Shown here in pieces: positions 9,522 to 63,895 of a stretch of 64,000 bases of DNA. The notes beneath the pieces are model-generated. The model searched no databases. It saw only the letters and a program-made list of their open reading frames with translations, and had not been told where the DNA came from. The DNA comes from an uncultured Rhodobiaceae bacterium. GTDB lineage: Bacteria > Pseudomonadota > Alphaproteobacteria > Rhizobiales > TMED25. Both the position numbers and the translations under genes were made by a program. The stretch is from assembly GCA_913030915.1 (NCBI GenBank), contig CAJWEW010000002.1, forward strand, positions 5,906-69,905, read 5' to 3'. How positions within the stretch are numbered: position 1 is the first letter of the stretch; every line of letters starts with the position of its first letter.

Positions 9522-10442
9522 TTAATTTTTGTTTATTACTGCCGCGACTTCATCTGCGAAGTCTTCTTCCTTCTTTTCAATACCATCCCCTAGTTGCATT
9601 CTAGTAAAACGTGTAATTACAATATCCTCATTTAACTCACTAGATTTATTTTCAAGCAGTTTTTCTATTTTAGTTTCACCATCTATAACAAAAATTTGAG
9701 ATAATAAAGCATTTTCTTCAGTAAATTTTTTTATTCTACCCTCAACCATTTTTTCGATTATGTTCTCGGGTTTACCACTTTCACGTGCTTGTTCAACCGC
9801 GATTTGCTTTTCCCTCTCAATTAATTCAGGGCTTATTTCGTTTGATGCTAAAGCTAGTGGATTTGTTGCTGCAATATGCATACAGAGACTTTTTCCAAAA
9901 TCAGCTAAATTATCTATGGCAGCTTTGGACCTTATGGCGACTAATACTCCTATTTTACCAAGGGACTCAGCAACAGCATTATGAGTGTAAGAAAATATGT
10001 GCTCATCTTCAATATTTTCATACGTTACAACCCTTCTTAACATAATATTCTCGCCTATTGTTGCAATCTTTTCATTGATTTCTTCAGCAACAGTTCTGCC
10101 AGTATTTTGATACTGCGCACTTTCAAGTTCATCATTATCAATAGAAACCTCAAGTACACCTCTTAATAGGTCTTGAAATTCTTCATTTCTTGCAACAAAA
10201 TCTGTTTCTGAGTTTAACTCAATCATAGCGGCAGAGCCATTCTTAATGAGCGATCCAATTAAGCCTTCTGAGGCAATTCTGTCCGATTTTTTGGCCGCTT
10301 TGGTTATTCCTTTGGCCCTTAACCAATCTATGGAGAGATCTATATTCCCATCGTTTTCAGTAAGCGCTGTTTTACAATCCATCATACCTGCACCACTTTT
10401 TTCTCTGAGCTCTTTAACTAGCCCTGCAGTAATTTCAACCAT
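9522..10442 (-). CDS. tsf: Elongation factor Ts
   Basis: VKELREKSGAGMMDCK, ELNSETDFVARN. Confidence 0.98.
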   Translation of the reverse strand: MVEITAGLVKELREKSGAGMMDCKTALTENDGNIDLSIDWLRAKGITKAAKKSDRIASEGLIGSLIKNGSAAMIELNSETDFVARNEEFQDLLRGVLEVSIDNDELESAQYQNTGRTVAEEINEKIATIGENIMLRRVVTYENIEDEHIFSYTHNAVAESLGKIGVLVAIRSKAAIDNLADFGKSLCMHIAATNPLALASNEISPELIEREKQIAVEQARESGKPENIIEKMVEGRIKKFTEENALLSQIFVIDGETKIEKLLENKSSELNEDIVITRFTRMQLGDGIEKKEEDFADEVAAVINKN

Positions 10443-10477
10443 TTACACTCCTTAATTGCATTTGACGCCAGAGAAAT

Positions 10478-11413
10478 TTAAGACTTTTCAATATTATCTT
10501 CAGTTGGCTCTGGTTTCTTCTTAGTTGATATTCTTTTCTTTTTCTCAACAATCAACTCTTTGTTTTCCTCGGTTGATGTGTCGACCTCGGTGGATTCCTC
10601 GACGGAGTCAACAGGAGGCTCTTCGGTTACACCCTCGTCTTTTGGTTCTTGGTTTAACACCTCCAAATCATCAGATGATACTGGATCAATGCTTTCACCT
10701 TGATCAACAGCATTTTTTGTTTGTGAATTTTCCATACCATCCAAGATTGCGCGCTCTGCCAATGAGCAATATAGCGCAATAGCTCGAGAGGCATCATCGT
10801 TCCCAGGTATTGGATGATCTATATTATCTGGTGTTGAATTTGTATCAAGGATTGCCACAACAGGAATACCAAGTTTATTGGCCTCCAGTATTGCAATCGC
10901 CTCTTTATTTGTATCAATAACAAACAGAATATCTGGTAAGCCCCCCATATCTTTGATGCCACCGATCGCTCTTTCGAGCTTATTATGCTCTCGGGTAAGT
11001 TTTAATACTTCTTTTTTTGTAAGAGCATTTATTTTTTCACTACTTAGCATTTCTTGAAGATCTTTAAATCTTTTAATTGAATTAGAAACTGTTTTCCAAT
11101 TCGTTAAAATACCCGCCATCCATGTATGATTAATATAATACTGTGCTGATTTTTTCGCTGAGTCTGCAACATGCTCTGATGCTTGTCGTTTTGTGCCAAC
11201 AAACAAAATCCTGCCTCCTGACGCAGCTACATCTCTAATCGCGAGAAGCGCTTGATGTAACAATGGTACGGTTTGTGATAAATCAATTATATGGATACCA
11301 TTTCTTTTACCATAAATAAAAGTTTCCATTTTGGGATTCCAGCGTTCTTTTTTATGACCAAAATGAACGCCAGCTTCTAATAGCTCTCTCATTGAGAAAT
11401 CTGGAAGTGACAT
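10478..11413 (-). CDS. rpsB: 30S ribosomal protein S2 with acidic C-terminal extension
   Basis: [27 protein letters not shown]. Start reassigned to the ATG at 11413, which has an AGGAG Shine-Dalgarno at 11421-11425; the track's 11467 start runs through the leader. Confidence 0.97.
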
Positions 11414-11482
11414 TATTATTCTCCTGACTCGGTTATTCCCCATAGAGCTTAACAAACACCGACTCATGCTCTATGTATGTAA
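11414..11482 (-). promoter_or_regulatory. rpsB 5' leader (S2 autoregulatory-type structured leader)
   Basis: Minus strand reads ACATAC-CATAGAGC-style stem: CATAGAGC..GAGTCGGTGTTTGTTAA..GCTCTATG (perfect 8-bp stem), then GGGAATAACCG before the SD. This resembles the proteobacterial rpsB leader. Confidence 0.6.
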
Positions 11483-11538: not shown

Positions 11539-14500
11539 TTAGTCTGTGTTTATGTCGACTACTCCAGGTATTGAGCTTAGATACTTTTCGGTATCATCGT
11601 CAAAGGAATAGGTATTTCCAATCTCAAGTTTTATATCTTTTTTTAAATTATTATCATAAAATTTTAAATTGATAATATCTGAACCTTTGCCAAGCTTCAG
11701 CTTTTCAGCTATTAGATCAATTGCTGTTATATCTGATATTTTTATTGTATATTTTTGATTAACAATCTCTTCGTTCTGGTCCAAATCTTCTATCTCGGGA
11801 TGGATGGGATTGTCGCTTACTACCTCAGCTTTATCGGTATCAAATAAACCATCTTCGGTAGCTTGAATGACGTCATTTACGCGGAGTCTGATTGAGTCGC
11901 CTTGGAGGTCGGCATCTACTTTTATAACTAAAACATTGCCTACAAATAGTACATCATTAAATTTATCTATAGTATCTGAAAAAAACATAGTCTCAAATTC
12001 TTGGCTTTCATCTGAGAATCTTATAAATGAATAATTTCTACCTGTTTTACCTCTTCTGTTTACCCTTGCGTGAATTACACCAGCCAGTCTGGCTTGCTTA
12101 TACCTTTTTGTCTTTACGTTATTTATGAAATCAGCATATGAAGTGACGCTGTACTTCTTAACGTCGCGCGAATAGCCTTGCAATGGATGACCTGACAAAT
12201 AAGATCCCAAAAATTCAAACTCACCTGCAAGTTTTCTGCTTCTGTTCCATTCTTTTTTTTCAGGTAACCTTATTTCAGCCTTCGTCTCTTCAATGCCAGC
12301 AAATATATCTGTCTGACCATCTAAATTTTTTTTCTTAAGCCGGTTTGACTCCAATAGAAGAATTTCAACGTTCTCCATCAGCAGCGCTCTGTTCTGTTCA
12401 ATCTCATCAAAAGCGCCTGCCATGATTAATCCCTCAAGCGCACGCTTATTTACAAAATGACTATCGATCCTTGAGATAAAATCCTGAATATCAGTATAAT
12501 GTCCATTTTTATTCCTCTCTGCGCAAATGTTTTCAACTGCCTGCGCACCAACATTCTTTATTGATGATAGTGAGAATCTTATTGATTTACCCTCAATTAG
12601 AAAATCGTGCGAAGAGTAATTTATTGAGGGTGGTAATATCTCTATTTTCATCCTTTTTGTTTCTGAAATAATACTTGAAACCTTATCGATATTACCAATA
12701 TCTAGTGTCAAAAGCGCTGACATAAATGCTAGGGGATAATTCGCTTTTAAGTAAGCGGTTTGGAATGCAATCAAAGCATAGGCAGCCGAATGCGCCTTAT
12801 TAAAACCATATCCTGCAAATTTATCCACCAAATCAAATATATATTCAGCTTTCTTTCTATCAACCCCATTTGAGCTTGCGCCATTTATAAATTTATCTCG
12901 CTGCGCATCCATTTCAGATTTTATTTTTTTACCCATAGCCCGCCTCAGGAGATCGGCTTCACCAAGACTATAACCAGCTAATTTCTGGGCAATTTGAATG
13001 ACCTGCTCTTGATATATTATTACTCCGTAAGTATCAGCAATTATTGGGTTAATAAGCTCATGCAAATCTTCAATCTCAACATCTGTATTCTTTGACTCAA
13101 GATATTGAGGAATATTTTCCATTGGACCTGGTCGGAATAGTGCAATTAAGGCAATTAAATCTTCAAAGTTATTCGGGTGAGCCTTGACCAGTAAATCTTT
13201 CATGCCTGAGCTTTCAAATTGGAAAACACCCGATGTTTCGCCATCTCTAAAGAGTTTGAGGGTTTTCTCGTCCTGAAAATCTATGGATGTTATATCTATA
13301 GTTTTACCAATGGCTTCGAGCTGCTTGCAGCATTCACTTATTACAGACAGGGTTTTGAGGCCTAAAATATCAAATTTAACCAGACCCGCTTGCTCAACCC
13401 ACTTCATATTGAACTGCGTTACAAGGGAATTAGTTTTTTGGTCCATATATAGGGGTACGTATTCCTCAAGTTTTCCATTTGATATTACAACTCCAGCTGC
13501 GTGCGTTGAGGCATGCCGGTATAGACCTTCAAGCGAGAGTGAGAACTTGAGAAGGCGATCTACTGTTTCGTCTGATTTTCTAATCAAGCCAATCTCTTTG
13601 ATCTCACTTAGTGCATCTGATAGCGTCATCGGATTCGCGGGGTTGTTTGGTATCAGTCTACACAAACTGTCTACTTGACCATAAGGGATCTCCATTACCC
13701 TACCAACATCTCGAATTACTGCTCTCGCTTGAAGTTTACCGAAAGTAATTATTTGTGCAACTCTATCATTGCCATATCTTTGTTTTATATAATTAATAAC
13801 TTCGTCACGTCTTATTGGGCAAAAGTCAATATCAAAGTCAGGCATTGATATTCGATGTGGATTAAGAAATCTTTCAAATACAAGATTGAATTTTATAGGA
13901 TCTAAGTCTGTTATCCCAAGGGACCAAGCTACAAGAGAGCCAGCACCGGACCCTCTACCTGGCCCAACCGGTATACCGTTATTTTTTGACCAGTTAATTA
14001 TATCAGATACAATTAAAAAATAGCCTGCATAATCCATGTCAAGAATAATTGAAAGCTCATTATCAAGTCTATCTTGGTAAAATGATATGTTATAATTTTC
14101 TGCAGTTCCAAATTTTGAAATTTTATCCTGAAATCCATTATTAGCCATGTCAACTAGCATATGGTTTTCTTTCTCTTTCGCTTCATCCTCAGACCCTTCC
14201 TGTACATACATTGGAAGTATTGGGCTTAATGTTGTCGGTCTGTATGTGCACCGCATCGAGATTGATACAGAGTTCTCGAGTGCCTCTGGCAAATCTTCAA
14301 ACAAGGAAAGCATTTCTTCTTGGTTTTTAAAATAGGATTCTTGCGAGATCTTTTTTCTATTTGGATTAGATACCACATCAGCATTTGTAATACACTGAAG
14401 GATGTCATTTGCCTCGTGGTCCGCACGTGACTCAAAAAAAATATCATTTGTTGCAACTATGGGTATATCACTATCATAGGCTATGTCTAGTAGCTTATTC

Positions 14501-15051
14501 TCAACCGATTGATTATTTCTGTCTGACCTTTGAATTTCAATAAAGAGCCTCTCATTAAATACACTCTTTATGTTATTTATGTATTCAATTGCTTGATCAG
14601 TACCATTTGACTTAATCAGATTATTTACAGTGCCTCTGTCCCCACCAGTGAGGAAAAATAAACCCTCATTGTGTTTATAAATTTCTTCAATCGTCACAAA
14701 TGGAAATAGTGCATTATTTTTTTGAAAGGAATAGCTTGATAATTTTAATAAATTCTTATACCCAATCTCCGTCATAGCTATCAAGCAAACTGAAGACTCC
14801 ATTTGATTTGAACTTGATGTGAGGGCATTATTTGATGACACATTCAGCGTTGCTCCAATTAACGGCTGAATGCCATTTGATGACATAATCTCTGAAAATT
14901 CTAATGCGCCAAAAAGGTTACTATCAGAAATACCAACAGCGGGCATACTGTTTTCAATACATAAATCCTTTATCTGATTTATATGAAGAGATGACTCAAG
15001 AAGTGAGTATGCAGATCGAGCACGCAGGTGTATAAAATGTGGAATTGCCAT
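11539..15051 (-). CDS. dnaE: DNA polymerase III subunit alpha (DnaE1)
   Basis: PHP domain, GPGRGSGAGSLVA, catalytic PDFDIDF, FAGYGFNKAH, OB fold. Start set at the ATG at 15051 (AAGGGA SD); the track starts at 15078. No intein seen. Confidence 0.97.
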   Translation of the reverse strand: MAIPHFIHLRARSAYSLLESSLHINQIKDLCIENSMPAVGISDSNLFGALEFSEIMSSNGIQPLIGATLNVSSNNALTSSSNQMESSVCLIAMTEIGYKNLLKLSSYSFQKNNALFPFVTIEEIYKHNEGLFFLTGGDRGTVNNLIKSNGTDQAIEYINNIKSVFNERLFIEIQRSDRNNQSVENKLLDIAYDSDIPIVATNDIFFESRADHEANDILQCITNADVVSNPNRKKISQESYFKNQEEMLSLFEDLPEALENSVSISMRCTYRPTTLSPILPMYVQEGSEDEAKEKENHMLVDMANNGFQDKISKFGTAENYNISFYQDRLDNELSIILDMDYAGYFLIVSDIINWSKNNGIPVGPGRGSGAGSLVAWSLGITDLDPIKFNLVFERFLNPHRISMPDFDIDFCPIRRDEVINYIKQRYGNDRVAQIITFGKLQARAVIRDVGRVMEIPYGQVDSLCRLIPNNPANPMTLSDALSEIKEIGLIRKSDETVDRLLKFSLSLEGLYRHASTHAAGVVISNGKLEEYVPLYMDQKTNSLVTQFNMKWVEQAGLVKFDILGLKTLSVISECCKQLEAIGKTIDITSIDFQDEKTLKLFRDGETSGVFQFESSGMKDLLVKAHPNNFEDLIALIALFRPGPMENIPQYLESKNTDVEIEDLHELINPIIADTYGVIIYQEQVIQIAQKLAGYSLGEADLLRRAMGKKIKSEMDAQRDKFINGASSNGVDRKKAEYIFDLVDKFAGYGFNKAHSAAYALIAFQTAYLKANYPLAFMSALLTLDIGNIDKVSSIISETKRMKIEILPPSINYSSHDFLIEGKSIRFSLSSIKNVGAQAVENICAERNKNGHYTDIQDFISRIDSHFVNKRALEGLIMAGAFDEIEQNRALLMENVEILLLESNRLKKKNLDGQTDIFAGIEETKAEIRLPEKKEWNRSRKLAGEFEFLGSYLSGHPLQGYSRDVKKYSVTSYADFINNVKTKRYKQARLAGVIHARVNRRGKTGRNYSFIRFSDESQEFETMFFSDTIDKFNDVLFVGNVLVIKVDADLQGDSIRLRVNDVIQATEDGLFDTDKAEVVSDNPIHPEIEDLDQNEEIVNQKYTIKISDITAIDLIAEKLKLGKGSDIINLKFYDNNLKKDIKLEIGNTYSFDDDTEKYLSSIPGVVDINTD

Positions 15052-15140
15052 TAATATTCCCTTTTTGACTACCACCATTTTAATAAAAAAAAGCTAGAAG
15101 TCATTTTAATATTAGATTGTTTTAAATATTGTTTTGGTTT

Positions 15141-15149
15141 TGTGGATAA
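15141..15149 (-). promoter_or_regulatory. DnaA box upstream of dnaE
   Basis: Perfect TTATCCACA on the minus strand. About one such 9-mer is expected by chance in this window, so only its position supports function. Confidence 0.4.
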
Positions 15150-15159
15150 GAGGTGATGA

Positions 15160-15264
15160 TCAGATTATTGATGCAAATCTGAACAGCATAATTGATAATG
15201 TAATAACAGATAGAATTCCAGTTATATCTTCCCAATTATTTATAAATTTTTTAAATAAATACAT
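15160..15264 (-). CDS. 34-aa single-TM small protein, putative SidA-like SOS cell-division inhibitor
   Basis: MYLFKKFINNWEDITGILSVITLSIMLFRFASII*. AAGGA SD 7 nt upstream, LexA-boxed promoter immediately 5', dnaE immediately 3', hydrophobic residues 14-34. Below the ORF-track length cutoff. Confidence 0.7.
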   Translation of the reverse strand: MYLFKKFINNWEDITGILSVITLSIMLFRFASII

Positions 15265-15286
15265 ACTATATTCCTTTTTTGTACAT

Positions 15287-15315
15287 AATATGTTCTATTT
15301 TTGTTCTAATGTCAA
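15287..15315 (-). promoter_or_regulatory. Sigma70 promoter with an alphaproteobacterial LexA (SOS) box in the spacer
   Basis: Minus strand: TTGACA-tta-GAAC-aaaaata-GAAC-ATATT. -35 TTGACA at 15310-15315, 17-nt spacer, -10 CATATT at 15287-15292; GTTC-N7-GTTC at 15292-15306 on the plus strand. Confidence 0.8.
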
Positions 15316-15369
15316 ATAATTTATATAATATATATTGATGAGTTATAAAACTTATGCAAATAATTACGT

Positions 15370-16539
15370 ATGCTAGATAAAAAAAAATATAAAGAGAGCA
15401 CAATAATTACGCATGCTGGACAAGAGTCAGGCGAACATTTTGGTTTTGTGAATACGCCCGTTTATCGAGGCTCAACGGTACTCTCCGAAACCTCAAGACA
15501 ATTCAGAGAGCGCTCCTCAAGGTATTTCTATGGTAGCAAATCAAATCCAAATACTGAGTCTCTCTCAGAGGGTATTAGGCTATTAGAAAATGCTGAAGGG
15601 TGCCGAATAACAAGCTCTGGAAGAACAGCAATCCTCCTCAGTTTGCTAAGTATCCTTAGGAATGGAGATCAATTAATATTGTCTGATAATGTCTATGGAC
15701 CTACGAAGCAAATCGCAGAAAAGTTTCTTGCGAAGATGGGGGTCAAGACATTATATTTTAATCCGAAAGATTTAGATTCACTGGAAAATAAAATTACTAA
15801 AAAAACTAGAGCTGTTTTCTTTGAGTCACCCGGTTCACTTACATTCGAGATTATTGACATTAATAAATTAGTTTCCATTTGCTCAACGAGAGATCTGTTT
15901 ACAATAGTTGATAATACATGGGCAACACCTTTGTATTTTAAACCCTTTAAATTTGGTCTAGATATCTCTGTGCATGCGGGTACTAAGTATATAGTTGGGC
16001 ACTCTGACGTATTCATGGGAGCGGTAACCTATAACAAAAAAGCTCAAAAATATGTTGAAGACACCTTTGATATACTTAGGGTCAGCTCAAATGCGGATGA
16101 TGCTTATATGGCAAACAGAGGCCTTCGAACTATTAATGTTAGGATGGAAAAACAATTCACGAACTCACTAAAAATATGCGAATTCCTCAGCACTCATCAC
16201 GCAATCAAGGAAATCCTGTACCCCCCATTTCACAAAAGTCGTGATCATAACTTATGGAAAGAGTATTTTTCAGGTGGGGGTGGCAGTCTGATGTCCATAA
16301 TTATTAATAACAAAGATAATAGTATTGATGCTCTGGATAAATTCATTGATAGCCTGTCACTATTTGGTATTGGGGCTTCATGGGGTGGCTACGAGAGCCT
16401 AATTATGCCGATCTTTCCTGATAGGCGAACAACAAAAGAATGGTCTAAATACTCAAACTCTATGGTAAGAATTCATATTGGACTTGAAGACCCTGTTGAC
16501 CTAATTGAAGATTTGGCAAGCTCACTTGATACACTCTAA
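15370..16539 (+). CDS. metC: Cystathionine beta-lyase
   Basis: VNTPVYRGST, FFESPGSLTFE, DNTWAT, PLP lysine in HAGTKYIVGHSD, GIGASWGGYESL. Confidence 0.92.
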   Translation: MLDKKKYKESTIITHAGQESGEHFGFVNTPVYRGSTVLSETSRQFRERSSRYFYGSKSNPNTESLSEGIRLLENAEGCRITSSGRTAILLSLLSILRNGDQLILSDNVYGPTKQIAEKFLAKMGVKTLYFNPKDLDSLENKITKKTRAVFFESPGSLTFEIIDINKLVSICSTRDLFTIVDNTWATPLYFKPFKFGLDISVHAGTKYIVGHSDVFMGAVTYNKKAQKYVEDTFDILRVSSNADDAYMANRGLRTINVRMEKQFTNSLKICEFLSTHHAIKEILYPPFHKSRDHNLWKEYFSGGGGSLMSIIINNKDNSIDALDKFIDSLSLFGIGASWGGYESLIMPIFPDRRTTKEWSKYSNSMVRIHIGLEDPVDLIEDLASSLDTL

Positions 16540-16546
16540 TAAATAC

Positions 16547-16891
16547 TCAATCTCTATATAAACCTTTTTTCCTTAATTCTGATATATACTCTTTCCATAT
16601 TTTATCCTTGCCCATGAAAAGCTCTTGTAAATATTGCCAAGTATAAATACCGGTAGAATGACCATCATCAAAAATAAGCTTTATTGCATAATTGCCAACA
16701 AGCTCAATTGAATTAATTGAAATACCCCTCTTTCCGCTCACAGTTTTTTTTTGCGCTGGGCTATGCCCCTTCACCTCGGCGCTGGGGCTATTAACTCTTA
16801 AAAATTCGGCACTCATAACAGATTTTTTAACCTCATATTCAAGGGTTAGCTCTTTCTTGTTTTCAGATAAAATTATATTTTTAGGTATCAT
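16547..16891 (-). CDS. DUF971 family protein
   Basis: SAEFLRVNSPSAEVKGH and VGNYAIKLIFDDGHSTGIYTW; adjacent to mrp. Confidence 0.9.
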   Translation of the reverse strand: MIPKNIILSENKKELTLEYEVKKSVMSAEFLRVNSPSAEVKGHSPAQKKTVSGKRGISINSIELVGNYAIKLIFDDGHSTGIYTWQYLQELFMGKDKIWKEYISELRKKGLYRD

Positions 16892-16908
16892 CTAATATCA
16901 TCATGAAA

Positions 16909-17973
16909 CTAATTTATAATAATATTTGGTTTTTCTGAATTTGAGTTATCCTCAATTTTGCTTTTAACTAATTTCGCAATCTCAAGAAATTTTTTTGAAA
17001 CTGTTGAGTCTGTTTTAGACAGCATTATTGGCTTCCCATTATCCGAACACTCCCTTAAATCGATTTCTAATGGTATATCACCTAAAAAATCTACATTTTG
17101 ATTTTTTGCTTCAACTTTAGCGCCTTCAAAACCAAAAATATGTGATTCATTTTTACAATTAGGGCATATGAATGTACTCATATTTTCAATCATACCAAGA
17201 ATTGGTACATTAACTTTTTTAAACATTTCTATACCTTTTATGGCATCTATGAGGGCCAAGTCTTGTGGTGTTGATACAATTACTGCACCACTCATTGGTA
17301 CCCTTTGCGCCATGGTTAGCTGCACATCACCAGTTCCAGGTGGCATATCCACTATTAGATAATCTAACTGACCCCACTCAACATCATTGAGCATTTGACT
17401 TACTGCTGTTATTACCATTGGACCTCGCCAGATCATTGGGCTGTCTTCTGGAACAAGAAAGCCAATTGACATCAAAGAAATATTGTATTTCTGAATAGGT
17501 AAGATTTTACCCGCTTTAGATTTCTTTGGTTTTTGTCTGTCTCCAACGAGCTTTGGGATTGATGGTCCATATACATCAGCATCTAGCAGACCTACGCTAA
17601 AACCTAGCTGATTTATTGCAACAGCTAGATTTATTGAGATTGTCGATTTTCCAACACCGCCCTTTCCGGAAGCAACAGAAATTATATTTCTTACTTCTGA
17701 AATACCACTTGTAACAGCCCTAGTGTCAGCTTTACTTTGCATTGACTCAGAGTGTGATGTTAAAGAAACAGATACACTATCAATACCATCAATTGCTGAT
17801 AACTCTTTTTCTATTTGAAGTTTAATTCTTGTAAATATATCGATTTTAGTTTTGTCTGTTTTTAACGAGAGATAAATTTTTTTATTTGCAACTACGATGG
17901 CTTCGATTAATTCAGGGTATTCAGGGTTCAATAGCTTCAGCTTTTCAATAGCTAAAGTTTTTACGTCCGACAT
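16909..17973 (-). CDS. mrp: Mrp/ApbC Fe-S cluster carrier ATPase
   Basis: SGKGGVGKST, LDADVYGPS, MIWRGPM, DMPPGTGD, CPNC. Confidence 0.95.
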   Translation of the reverse strand: MSDVKTLAIEKLKLLNPEYPELIEAIVVANKKIYLSLKTDKTKIDIFTRIKLQIEKELSAIDGIDSVSVSLTSHSESMQSKADTRAVTSGISEVRNIISVASGKGGVGKSTISINLAVAINQLGFSVGLLDADVYGPSIPKLVGDRQKPKKSKAGKILPIQKYNISLMSIGFLVPEDSPMIWRGPMVITAVSQMLNDVEWGQLDYLIVDMPPGTGDVQLTMAQRVPMSGAVIVSTPQDLALIDAIKGIEMFKKVNVPILGMIENMSTFICPNCKNESHIFGFEGAKVEAKNQNVDFLGDIPLEIDLRECSDNGKPIMLSKTDSTVSKKFLEIAKLVKSKIEDNSNSEKPNIIIN

Positions 17974-18031
17974 GGTCTTGGCTTATGATATATCGAGCGC
18001 GCCATGTACGCGACGCGCTCTTTGTGGTATT

Positions 18032-19114
18032 TTAATTTGGAATGACGCCATCAATCCCTTCGACATAGAAATCCATCCCAAGTAAATCAATTTCCGAGGC
18101 AACTTCGCCATCAGCAAGCCAAACCGTTCCGTCCTGCTTATTTATTGGTCCTGTGAAAGGATGCAACTCGCCAGAAAGTATTCCCTTTTGCGCATCGTTT
18201 ACAAGGTTTACGACAACCTTGGGCACATCATCAGATATATCGGCTAGCTTTACCATTCCGGTTGGCATACCACCCCATGTATCTTTCGACTCCCATGTCT
18301 TGTCGATCAACGCCTGTGTTCTCTCAACGTAATAGGGTGCCCAGTCATCTATTATGGCAGTTAATTGCGCATTTGGGCCAAACTGAATCATGTCTGATGC
18401 CTGTCCAAAAGCATATATACCCTGCTCTTCAGCAATTGTCATTGCAGCAGCAGAGTCTGTATGTTGCATAATAATGTCCGCACCTTGATCGATAAGTGCT
18501 TTTGCTGCATCAGCTTCTTTACCCGGATCAAACCAAGTGTAGACCCATACTATTTTAAATTCAACAGTAGGGTTTACAGATGTAGCTGCAAGATAAGCTG
18601 CATTTATTCCCCTAATAACTTCCGGTATTGGGAATGAGGCAATGTATCCGATTGTATTTGATTGAGTCATCCCACCAGCAATTAAGCCAATCAGGTGACG
18701 ACCTTCATAAAATCTGGCTGCATATGTTGCGACATTATCAGCTCTTTGATATCCGGTTGCATGTTCAAATTTAACTTTTTTAAATTTTTTTGCAACTTTG
18801 ATGGTTGGATTCATATACCCAAAAGATGTTGTGAATATGAGGTCATGGTCTCTTGCCATTTGGGTGATAGCCCTTTCAGCGTCGGGCCCCTCTGATACGC
18901 TCTCAACATAAGTTGTTTCAACAGCCTCCCCAAATGCTTCAACTACAGCTTTTCGACCCTGATCGTGCTCATAGGTCCAACCAAAGTCTGTAACAGGGCC
19001 AACATAAATAAATCCAACTTTTTTAACACCATCATCAGATAATTGGGATTGATAGTAAAAACCAACAGCTATAATCAAAATAACGATTATAGAACCAAGT
19101 ATTTTTTTTGACAT
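18032..19114 (-). CDS. BMP-family ABC transporter substrate-binding protein (purine/nucleoside type)
   Basis: KVGFIYVGPVTDFGWTYEHDQGR, FTTSFGY, EHATGY, PIPEVIRGINA; linked to two permeases and an ATPase. Confidence 0.9.
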   Translation of the reverse strand: MSKKILGSIIVILIIAVGFYYQSQLSDDGVKKVGFIYVGPVTDFGWTYEHDQGRKAVVEAFGEAVETTYVESVSEGPDAERAITQMARDHDLIFTTSFGYMNPTIKVAKKFKKVKFEHATGYQRADNVATYAARFYEGRHLIGLIAGGMTQSNTIGYIASFPIPEVIRGINAAYLAATSVNPTVEFKIVWVYTWFDPGKEADAAKALIDQGADIIMQHTDSAAAMTIAEEQGIYAFGQASDMIQFGPNAQLTAIIDDWAPYYVERTQALIDKTWESKDTWGGMPTGMVKLADISDDVPKVVVNLVNDAQKGILSGELHPFTGPINKQDGTVWLADGEVASEIDLLGMDFYVEGIDGVIPN

Positions 19115-22984: not shown

Positions 22985-23061
22985 TGGCGACCCCGCGAGG
23001 ACTCGAACCTCGGACCTTCAGATTAGAAATCTACTGCTCTATCCAACTGAGCTACGGGGCC
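22985..23061 (-). tRNA. tRNA-Arg(UCU)
   Basis: GGCCCCGTAGCTCAGTTGGATAGAGCAGTAGATTTCTAATCTGAAGGTCCGAGGTTCGAGTCCTCGCGGGGTCGCCA; cloverleaf, anticodon TCT, encoded CCA. Confidence 0.93.
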
Positions 23062-23067
23062 AATAAT

Positions 23068-23373
23068 TTAGTGTGTCCATTTATCTTTTCTATCAAATCT
23101 AAAATTATCTGAGTATAACTTACTCCTATATGTTTTTTCTTTCTCAGGGATAATTTCATATTCAATATTATTTCTTTTGGCGTAGTTTATTGCTTGATCA
23201 ACATCATCGAATAATAACTTAACTTGCTCATTAGTATCTTGGGAACCAGTCCAGCCCATCAGAGGCTCCCTAATTATATCTTTTTGTTTGTGATATTCAA
23301 AAACCCACTTTTTTGTTTTTCCAAGACCTGATTGCATTGATGTTTTTGCGGGTTTATAGATCTTTGCTTTCAT
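23068..23373 (-). CDS. ETC complex I accessory subunit (NDUFS4-like)
   Basis: KIYKPAKTSMQSG, EPLMGWTGS, AINYAKRN; sits between tRNA-Pro and tRNA-Arg, as is common in alphaproteobacteria. Confidence 0.92.
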   Translation of the reverse strand: MKAKIYKPAKTSMQSGLGKTKKWVFEYHKQKDIIREPLMGWTGSQDTNEQVKLLFDDVDQAINYAKRNNIEYEIIPEKEKTYRSKLYSDNFRFDRKDKWTH

Positions 23374-23399
23374 TGTATCAAATTATTAGTTCTTATAAA

Positions 23400-23476
23400 T
23401 GGTCGGGGCGGAGAGATTCGAACTCCCGACCCACTGGTCCCAAACCAGTTGCGCTACCAGGCTGCGCTACGCCCCG
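23400..23476 (-). tRNA. tRNA-Pro(UGG)
   Basis: CGGGGCGTAGCGCAGCCTGGTAGCGCAACTGGTTTGGGACCAGTGGGTCGGGAGTTCGAATCTCTCCGCCCCGACCA. Confidence 0.97.
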
Positions 23477-23641
23477 TATAGTGATATATATAACAATTGT
23501 TTATTATATGGAATAAAAAAATAACAATAAGGACAGGTCCGCCACAAATCCATGTAATTATATATAACATTGATTCTCAATAATTATCAAAAGCTAAATT
23601 TTGGGTTTAATTACATTATGAAAATATGTGTGCAAAAAAAA

Positions 23642-23716
23642 TGGCGCTCCCTAGGGGAATCGAACCCCTCTTTCAAGGTTGAAAACCTTGCGTCCTAACC
23701 GATAGACGAAGGGAGC
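23642..23716 (-). tRNA. tRNA-Glu(UUC)
   Basis: GCTCCCTTCGTCTATCGGTTAGGACGCAAGGTTTTCAACCTTGAAAGAGGGGTTCGATTCCCCTAGGGAGCGCCA. Confidence 0.97.
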
Positions 23717-63805: not shown

Positions 63806-63895
63806 GGAGAGGTGGCCGAGTGGCTGAAGGCGCTCCCCTGCTAAGGGAGTATACGAGAGATCGTATCGTGGGTTCGAATCCCACTCTCTCCGCCA
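63806..63895 (+). tRNA. tRNA-Ser(GCU)
   Basis: GGAGAGGTGGCCGAGTGGCTGAAGGCGCTCCCCTGCTAAGGGAG...GGTTCGAATCCCACTCTCTCCGCCA; long variable arm, anticodon GCT. Confidence 0.97.

Follow-up and report, generated by a model that had tools for sequence, protein, structure and literature searches.

A window of 64,000 nucleotides from an uncultured bacterium labelled Rhodobiaceae (contig CAJWEW010000002.1 of assembly GCA_913030915.1; "the window" is this whole stretch) carries, directly upstream of dnaE, a gene of 34 codons for a single-helix hydrophobic peptide, MYLFKKFINNWEDITGILSVITLSIMLFRFASII. This gene is real and under purifying selection, while its product is an orphan by ordinary sequence search. 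With moderate confidence, the peptide can be read as a divergent counterpart of the Caulobacter cell-division inhibitor SidA in the marine OCS116 cluster, by position and probably by descent, that the SOS response would induce and that would probably delay division. The evidence comes from the conservation of the peptide in relatives, from a LexA-type operator predicted in the promoter of its gene, and from a wider family of small peptides upstream of dnaE, to which SidA belongs.

The peptide gene, its promoter and its relatives

A preliminary description of this DNA had placed a 34-residue membrane peptide on the minus strand upstream of dnaE, and the open reading frame (ORF) and its translation match MYLFKKFINNWEDITGILSVITLSIMLFRFASII*. 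The details it gave are likewise found in the sequence: a Lys-Lys N-terminus (K5 and K6), a hydrophobic C-terminal helix of about 21 residues (I14-I34), and an AAGGA Shine-Dalgarno (SD) sequence 7 nt before the ATG. It had also called the peptide unannotated, which does not hold everywhere, as gene callers have already entered exact copies as "hypothetical protein" in several public records (e.g., GIS07677.1). Among close relatives in the window clade, the maximum hydropathy over 15 residues is approximately 2.1-2.3 within the hydrophobic C-terminal 21 residues, and AlphaFold2, run on the single sequence, models the window peptide as one continuous helix spanning residues 2-33 with a predicted local distance difference test score (pLDDT) of 94. 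At 34 residues, with one hydrophobic helix and predicted insertion into the membrane, the peptide has the general form of SidA.

Searches with the N-terminus of DnaE place the window in an alphaproteobacterium of the marine OCS116 cluster with approximately 36% G+C. OCS116 records are labelled variously as Rhodobiaceae or Hyphomicrobiales, and the earlier placement in a Hyphomicrobiales-like lineage is corrected to this cluster. The whole arrangement is kept in five species-level genomes (L001-L005; 82-93% identity in the DnaE N-terminus) and in three metagenome contigs (L031-L033). It is also kept, along with the neighbouring genes, in a sister clade (L023-L028 and L034) whose DnaE N-termini are only 54-56% identical to those of the window clade. 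The ORF of this sister clade, MFLLNKI[TM]HNWEDLA[GS]LISI[IV]AFSFMLFRLV[VA]II, again has 34 codons and is 44% identical to the window peptide without gaps. A more distant AT-rich relative (L035; 49% identity in the DnaE N-terminus) encodes a 37-codon ORF, MNLFNISKIYLKDFVALSSMLVFFIMLVKWSEILLSF, behind a block, TTGACA-N3-GAAC-N7-GAACATA...ACAAAAAAGGAATATA, that is nearly identical to that of the window. By DNA alignment and ORF position, L035 and the window also have the divergent upstream gene in common, and, since this gene, the promoter and the 5' untranslated region (UTR) are shared, the L035 peptide is a positional orthologue. Judged by the synteny, the alignable promoter and 5'UTR, and the position of the ORF that are common to these loci, the window peptide is unambiguously orthologous to the peptides of the sister clade and L035.

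In the two OCS116 clades (L001-L005, L023-L028, L031-L034), the ORF has exactly 34 codons in the same frame, and its start, stop, frame and length are preserved despite near-saturated synonymous change (synonymous divergence, dS, 0.8-1.5). The ratio of nonsynonymous to synonymous divergence (dN/dS), estimated by the Nei-Gojobori method (NG86), is 0.06-0.2 for divergent pairs; a ratio below 1, with length and frame kept in close relatives, is what the preliminary description had anticipated for a genuine gene. The variable columns of the ORF are distributed 8/6/18 over the three codon positions. Codon-position bias alone cannot fix the strand, because one antisense frame (15134..15319(+)) shares its wobble positions with the peptide ORF. 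This frame is largely open and has a low dN/dS as a mirror effect, which is a general trap in dN/dS tests on short hydrophobic ORFs. Of 10 pairs, 9 have a lower dN/dS in the sense frame than in the antisense frame, which stops interrupt in L035, and a promoter, an SD sequence and counterparts in GC-rich genomes are found for the sense frame only. It is very probable that the ORF is translated into a functional peptide.

The predicted promoter of the gene, TTGACA-17-CATATT (15315..15287), has a LexA-type operator in its spacer (Table 1). The GAAC-N7-GAAC motif of this operator is the alphaproteobacterial direct repeat GTTC-N7-GTTC read on the opposite strand, as published for Caulobacter LexA (PMC9578287). 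Within the 64 kb, GAACAAAAATAGAAC is the sole perfect GAAC-N7-GAAC, and, because one match equals the chance expectation (1.07), the weight of the box comes from its position in the promoter spacer and from its conservation. In all relatives the GAAC half-sites are invariant and the N7 spacers variable, and TTGACA is invariant in the window, L001, L004, L005, L024 and L035. A third repeat unit, imperfect in the window (GAACATATTATGTAC), is perfect in the sister clade (L024-L028, L034), giving GAAC-N7-GAAC-N7-GAAC. The SD sequence and the ATG are also invariant, and the box lies 42 nt before the ATG in both the window clade and L035. Across the alignments of relatives, the promoter, GAAC half-sites, SD sequence, start codon, DnaA box and proximal promoter form conserved blocks, and variation is found in the N7 spacers and the third positions of the ORF. 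The architecture that had been proposed, a promoter with a putative LexA box ahead of the peptide gene and dnaE, is thus real and conserved in relatives, and a perfect box predicted from the sequence lies in the promoter spacer, as is characteristic of SidA. The leader of the peptide mRNA is approximately 16-25 nt in length with the SD sequence exposed. No Rfam family reaches its gathering score at the peptide locus, which argues against RNA-based explanations; mir-1814, the lone Rfam match by E-value, scored 22.8 bits where 90 are required and was rejected as noise.

Small peptides upstream of dnaE in other Alphaproteobacteria

The 700 nt upstream of dnaE were surveyed at 84 loci. At 34 of these, dnaE is preceded by a small hydrophobic ORF with a family-profile score of 18.6 bits or more, a share of 40% that is only indicative, as the sample is neither random nor dereplicated. 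All other loci score at most 4.7 bits. The profile scores are partly circular, with 32 of the 34 being training members and only L083 and L100 independent; in leave-one-out profiles, the 30 members from outside OCS116 score 2.6-41 bits, and 29 of them at least 11 bits. At every one of the 34 loci, a GAAC-N7-GAAC box with at most one mismatch is found 19-93 nt before the ORF start. Over all 84 loci, a perfect box is present in the orientation of dnaE at 31 and in the reverse orientation at 2. The family ORFs have 28-46 codons and stop 30-253 nt before dnaE, and the window, with a box-to-ATG distance of 42 nt, 34 codons, and 108 nt from the peptide stop to the dnaE start on the same strand, fits this geometry and, like SidA, lies directly upstream of dnaE. 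The "natural small ORF" decoys of the survey held true family members without a perfect box, and were used for discovery, not as a null.

Members of the family form a gradient on NF033228 (NF033228.1, equivalog), the curated NCBIfam model of SidA, which has 29 positions and a cut-off of 35 bits. The highest score, 63.1 bits, belongs to L097, whose peptide NCBI names "cell division inhibitor SidA [Caulobacter sp.]", followed by L103 (44.5 bits), Brevundimonas (L022; 23.2 bits), the Parvibaculum type (L040; 16.2 bits, E 0.007) and L062 (11.3 bits), while six further family peptides scanned singly, including that of L035, give no match. L097 and L103 lie 130 nt and 46 nt upstream of dnaE, respectively, both behind TTGAC and GAAC repeats, and the Brevundimonas peptide has the same arrangement. 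As in the window, TTGAC stands directly before the boxes at loci with SidA-model and related peptides. These SidA-model peptides confirm the statement in the preliminary description that sidA is the gene directly upstream of dnaE; the literature covered, outside which Modell 2011 and da Rocha 2008 fall, states neither the adjacency of sidA and dnaE nor the distribution of SidA. A search seeded with the 41-residue Brevundimonas variant returned only Brevundimonas-type peptides of 77-94% identity, too narrow a set for a profile.

By exact-sequence look-up, the L040 cluster corresponds to a hypothetical protein of Parvibaculum sedimenti, and the L069 cluster to a hypothetical protein of several Bosea species. 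Distances of 77 and 125 nt separate the peptide genes from the downstream dnaE in named genomes of the two genera, and two perfect boxes come before the peptide genes. The gene order proS-lolE-lolD-dnaE is kept in many alphaproteobacteria (L006-L008, L029, L030, L112, L114), and in Bosea (L117/L118, 1..2611) the LexA box and the peptide gene are inserted between lolD and dnaE. As the upstream neighbour is lolD in Bosea and the divergent pyridoxal phosphate (PLP) enzyme gene in OCS116, the cassette travels with dnaE and not with the upstream gene.

The arrangement reaches well outside the Caulobacterales but is not universal. No annotated small gene was found upstream of dnaE at Hyphomonadaceae, Mesorhizobium, Sphingomonadales, Rhodobacteraceae and Hyphomicrobiaceae loci, at most of which the intergenic space is too small, the scan for a box and an ORF covering only the Hyphomonadaceae locus. 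A perfect GAAC-N7-GAAC with no small ORF is present 129-280 nt upstream of dnaE at L048, L056, L065, L085 and L107, and at these loci dnaE itself appears to be controlled by LexA. Two of them, L056 and L107, share an untranslated leader (GGTGAAAA.CG...CGAATCGTCCGCATCCG.GAGTGTA.GGACG) that has no Rfam match and may be a conserved RNA element. Matching to named DnaE fragments by blastx was rejected as a taxonomy of the metagenome loci, nearly all of which are 52-61% identical to one Brevundimonas fragment.

The alignment of the family has a recurrent pattern, in which the helix comes just after a residue that is aromatic or aliphatic, a basic one and Asp, and in which position +6 is Ser or Ala, position +10 Phe and position +17 Trp (aromatic). 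The OCS116 peptides align to this pattern without gaps (NW-E-D...S19...L/F23...F/L30). The gapless helix register to SidA that had been noted earlier, with S, M and A aligned, was recovered independently by MAFFT and by hhalign. When the OCS116 profile is compared with the rest of the family, hhalign gives a score of 14.3 (P 0.0015), which is equalled by 1 of 300 segment-wise shuffles and by 3 of 300 full column shuffles. With all OCS116 sequences left out of the family test profile, scores of 9.6-12.6 bits are obtained for the peptides of the sister clade, and the L035 peptide scores 17.1 bits in a leave-one-out profile; none of 1000 shuffles (segment shuffles for the sister clade) is as good in either case. 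It is quite probable that the window peptide is homologous to the SidA-containing family, on the basis of its position and of these intermediates and not of the window sequence alone.

The dnaE region, proposed function and alternatives

The gap of 318 bases between the divergent PLP enzyme gene and dnaE holds the promoter, the box, the peptide gene and a DnaA box. As the chance expectation for the DnaA box in 64 kb is 0.73, its weight rests on conservation: TTATCCACA is invariant in both OCS116 clades and has a one-mismatch copy in L035. The same sequence is found 110-130 nt upstream of dnaE in L038, L075 and L098, where L058, L079 and L083 have TTTTCCACA, which suggests that the transcription of dnaE may be influenced by DnaA in several alphaproteobacterial lineages. 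Next to dnaE, the proximal promoter-like site belongs to a block (AATGACTTCTA..TTTTTTA.TA.AAT) conserved in the window, L001, L004, L005 and L024, and is probably dnaE's own promoter. The stretch that separates the peptide gene from dnaE lacks a terminator and any stable hairpin, the folding energy being no better than that of shuffles (z -0.14).

The start of DnaE, MAIPHFIH, is conserved at 15051, and the mechanical ORF begins at an ATG at 15078 (region 15052..15078(-)). Because a one-base deletion in L001-L003 puts this upstream ATG out of frame, 15051 is the true start. The product was also considered as the error-prone DnaE2, which was rejected because the DnaE2 model gives 531 bits, under its cut-off of 939. 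Directly downstream of dnaE are rpsB and tsf (within 9522..11467(-)), and 16547..19114(-) encodes a 114-residue GBBH-like_N (DUF971-type) protein, the iron-sulfur (Fe-S) carrier ApbC/Mrp, and a substrate-binding protein of the Bmp family; the synteny of both groups is also seen in the sister clade (L024). Elsewhere in the window, three tRNA genes lie within 730 bases (22988..23716(-)) and a fourth is found close to the end of the window (63806..63892(+)), with Rfam tRNA scores of 58-65 bits.

Table 1. Features of the dnaE upstream region and its flanking genes, in window coordinates.
Feature	Position	Strand	Basis or remark
dnaE, replicative DNA polymerase III alpha subunit	11539..15051	-	NF004226, 1334 bits (cut-off 1002)
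Proximal promoter-like site, ATGACT-16-TAAAAT	15077..15104	-	conserved block
Perfect DnaA box between peptide gene and dnaE, TTATCCACA	15141..15149	-	single copy in 64 kb
Peptide gene (34 codons; single hydrophobic helix), MYLFKKFINNWEDITGILSVITLSIMLFRFASII	15160..15264	-	translation and conservation
Shine-Dalgarno sequence AAGGA; the ATG follows at 15264 after 7 nt	15272..15276	-	AGG core kept in all relatives
Overlapping imperfect box, third repeat unit, overlaps the -10, GAACATATTATGTAC	15281..15295	-	one mismatch
-10 hexamer CATATT	15287..15292	-	part of TTGACA-17-CATATT, 15315..15287
LexA-type operator in the promoter spacer, GAACAAAAATAGAAC	15292..15306	-	perfect GAAC-N7-GAAC; half-sites invariant in relatives
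-35 hexamer TTGACA of the distal promoter (putatively damage-regulated)	15310..15315	-	10/12 matches for TTGACA-17-CATATT
Divergent PLP enzyme gene, cystathionine beta-lyase-like	15370..16539	+	profile scores, under equivalog cut-offs

For the window peptide we infer LexA binding upstream of its gene, insertion into the membrane, a target in the divisome, and read-through into dnaE. In undamaged cells, LexA would occupy the GAAC-N7-GAAC(-N7-GTAC) repeats that overlap the spacer and the -10, and transcription would be blocked. Upon DNA damage, LexA would be cleaved, an mRNA with a short leader and an exposed SD sequence would be made, and the peptide would insert into the inner membrane. By analogy with SidA, the function of which has been described in Caulobacter (PMC4211646), the peptide might then bind the late divisome (FtsW/FtsI/FtsN), such that constriction would be delayed until repair is finished. 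With no terminator in between, the transcript would probably run on into dnaE and add damage-inducible expression of dnaE, which would also have its own promoter beside the DnaA box.

Several results weigh against a SidA counterpart with this function. On the OCS116-free family profile, the window clade scores only 1.5 bits (range 1.0-2.3 bits), which 11-24% of shuffles attain, and, because this score is not significant, the case for homology rests on position and intermediates. The similarity to SidA-family models that had been anticipated is absent from the curated model, as the window peptide and three relatives have no match to NF033228 even at E<=10, and the window peptide is therefore outside the curated SidA equivalog. 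Pfam and NCBIfam have no match for it either, and a phmmer search of 1.84 billion representatives yielded nothing beyond the cluster of the peptide itself and low-complexity noise. The partial circularity of the family-profile scores also counts here. A motif search of the window for SOS genes (recA, lexA, uvrA and others) found none, dnaE can be under LexA control where the peptide is absent, since five loci have the box and no ORF, and small hydrophobic peptides under LexA control can be membrane toxins too. Of the LexA-sidA-dnaE module that the preliminary description proposed for this lineage, the architecture and a transitive link to the family stand, and a match to the SidA model and a significant family-profile score of the window clade's own do not. 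The alternative it offered, a divergent small-protein family, is the better description, with the family being much wider than this lineage and for the most part unannotated.

The absence of a significant direct similarity between the window clade and SidA would also be seen if the peptide were a small membrane protein that is induced by damage, has a different role, for instance at the replisome or in the envelope, and resembles SidA only in position and shape. A pure division role leaves the persistent linkage to dnaE unexplained, and the genetic interaction of a sidA deletion with clamp-loader processing in Caulobacter (bioRxiv 10.1101/2022.11.10.516041) can be counted for another role as well. 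However, the transitive links lead to the SidA-containing family, and positional homologues are expected to share function, which makes this explanation unlikely.

In outline, with approximately 30 residues, one hydrophobic helix and a LexA-type operator, the peptide resembles TisB, and a conserved charged residue (R29) lies inside its hydrophobic stretch. An SOS-induced membrane toxin of the TisB/DinQ type would depolarise the inner membrane and cause growth arrest or persistence with no action on the divisome. The regulatory RNA layer of such toxins, in which an antisense or small RNA (sRNA) acts as antitoxin and the ribosome-binding site is masked by a long structured leader, is not seen at this locus, which has a short leader, an exposed SD sequence, no Rfam match and no stable structure nearby, although an unknown sRNA is possible. 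Furthermore, mobility and a patchy distribution are usual for type I toxin loci, whereas this locus is fixed beside dnaE across orders, in a place that it has in common with SidA-model peptides. A toxin of this type is improbable.

The constant position directly upstream of dnaE, on the same strand and with no terminator between, would also suit a cis-acting upstream ORF (uORF), the translation of which would tune damage-induced read-through into dnaE while the peptide itself would be functionless. The LexA boxes found upstream of dnaE even without an ORF point in the same direction, as dnaE may be the real regulatory target. Such a uORF is quite improbable given the purifying selection on the amino acid sequence of the peptide, the protein-level features kept across orders (Asp ahead of the helix, Phe in position +10, an aromatic residue in position +17), and the variable distance between the stop and dnaE (30-253 nt). 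Moreover, the intervening promoter-like site and DnaA box argue against translational coupling, and the Caulobacter member of the family acts in trans (PMC4211646). Finally, that the ORF is no gene at all and is open by chance in AT-rich intergenic DNA conserved for regulatory reasons is hardly credible: the intergenic region as a whole is strongly conserved (mean column identity 85%) and the wobble-sharing antisense frame also has a low dN/dS, but frame, length, start, stop and SD sequence are kept across clades at the synonymous divergence given above, equivalent ORFs occur in GC-rich genomes, where AT-richness cannot explain open frames, and gene callers already predict the peptide.

If the peptide is indeed an SOS-induced counterpart of SidA, the succession of LexA operator, tiny membrane peptide and dnaE could, more tentatively, represent an ancient SOS checkpoint across the Alphaproteobacteria. 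Its peptide would have evolved so rapidly that only the Caulobacter type has been recognised as SidA, and the linkage to dnaE, together with the DnaA box, would couple polymerase supply, replication control and division arrest. The lineages involved may include the Caulobacterales, Parvibaculum, Bosea, OCS116 and many uncultured groups. In the literature covered, no SOS-induced inhibitor of division other than SidA has been described for an alphaproteobacterium, and SidA is regarded there as a protein of Caulobacter. Should the peptide family work like SidA, the checkpoint would reach abundant marine OCS116 bacteria as well as Parvibaculum and Bosea, which are culturable and testable. Dozens of "hypothetical" mini-proteins would gain a candidate function, and the context of operator and neighbouring gene would prove able to recover fast-evolving families of small proteins that sequence searches miss. 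The literature covered also does not address why a division brake and the replicative polymerase would share a damage-inducible transcript, as the predicted read-through implies. Of most use is the presence in the family of the culturable Parvibaculum and Bosea, in which the proposed checkpoint is open to direct testing.

Comparison with known systems

SidA of Caulobacter crescentus (NF033228) is, like the window peptide, a tiny single-helix membrane peptide, encoded upstream of the replicative dnaE behind a TTGAC promoter with boxes of the GAAC-N7-GAAC type. Their gapless alignment keeps S, M and A in register and has an acidic residue ahead of the helix. The window peptide differs in its length of 34 residues, compared to 29 in SidA, with a longer N-terminus (MYLFKKFINNWED). 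It also departs from SidA and the family in having Glu-Asp for the usual Lys/Arg-Asp, Leu for Phe at +10, and an Arg within the C-terminal stretch. The peptides of Parvibaculum (WP_185681097.1) and Bosea (e.g., SDG96347.1), family members by profile, share with the window the module in which a box and a small hydrophobic ORF precede dnaE, while being 36-46 residues in length and encoded in GC-rich genomes. In SILVA and GTDB usage, Parvibaculum is placed in one order with the OCS116 clade, and its type of peptide matches the SidA model weakly, at the score given above, unlike the window peptide.

Another Caulobacter protein, DidA, is a small single-pass membrane protein that is induced by damage and blocks division via the late divisome (PMC4211646). 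In contrast to the window peptide, DidA has 71 residues, is SOS-independent (driven by DriD), and has neither linkage to dnaE nor a LexA box. TisB and DinQ of Escherichia coli share with the window peptide a small size and a hydrophobic character, and they are controlled by LexA, as is predicted for the window peptide. Unlike what is proposed for the window peptide, they depolarise the membrane, and they are accompanied by antisense or sRNA regulators and long structured leaders, none of which is seen at the window locus. Lastly, the Gram-positive membrane inhibitors YneA, ChiZ and DivS, along with SulA, are LexA-repressed and delay division after damage (PMC4211646; PMC9578287), as the window peptide would. 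These proteins are unrelated to it in sequence, larger, and built from other domains, and SulA is cytoplasmic and targets FtsZ.

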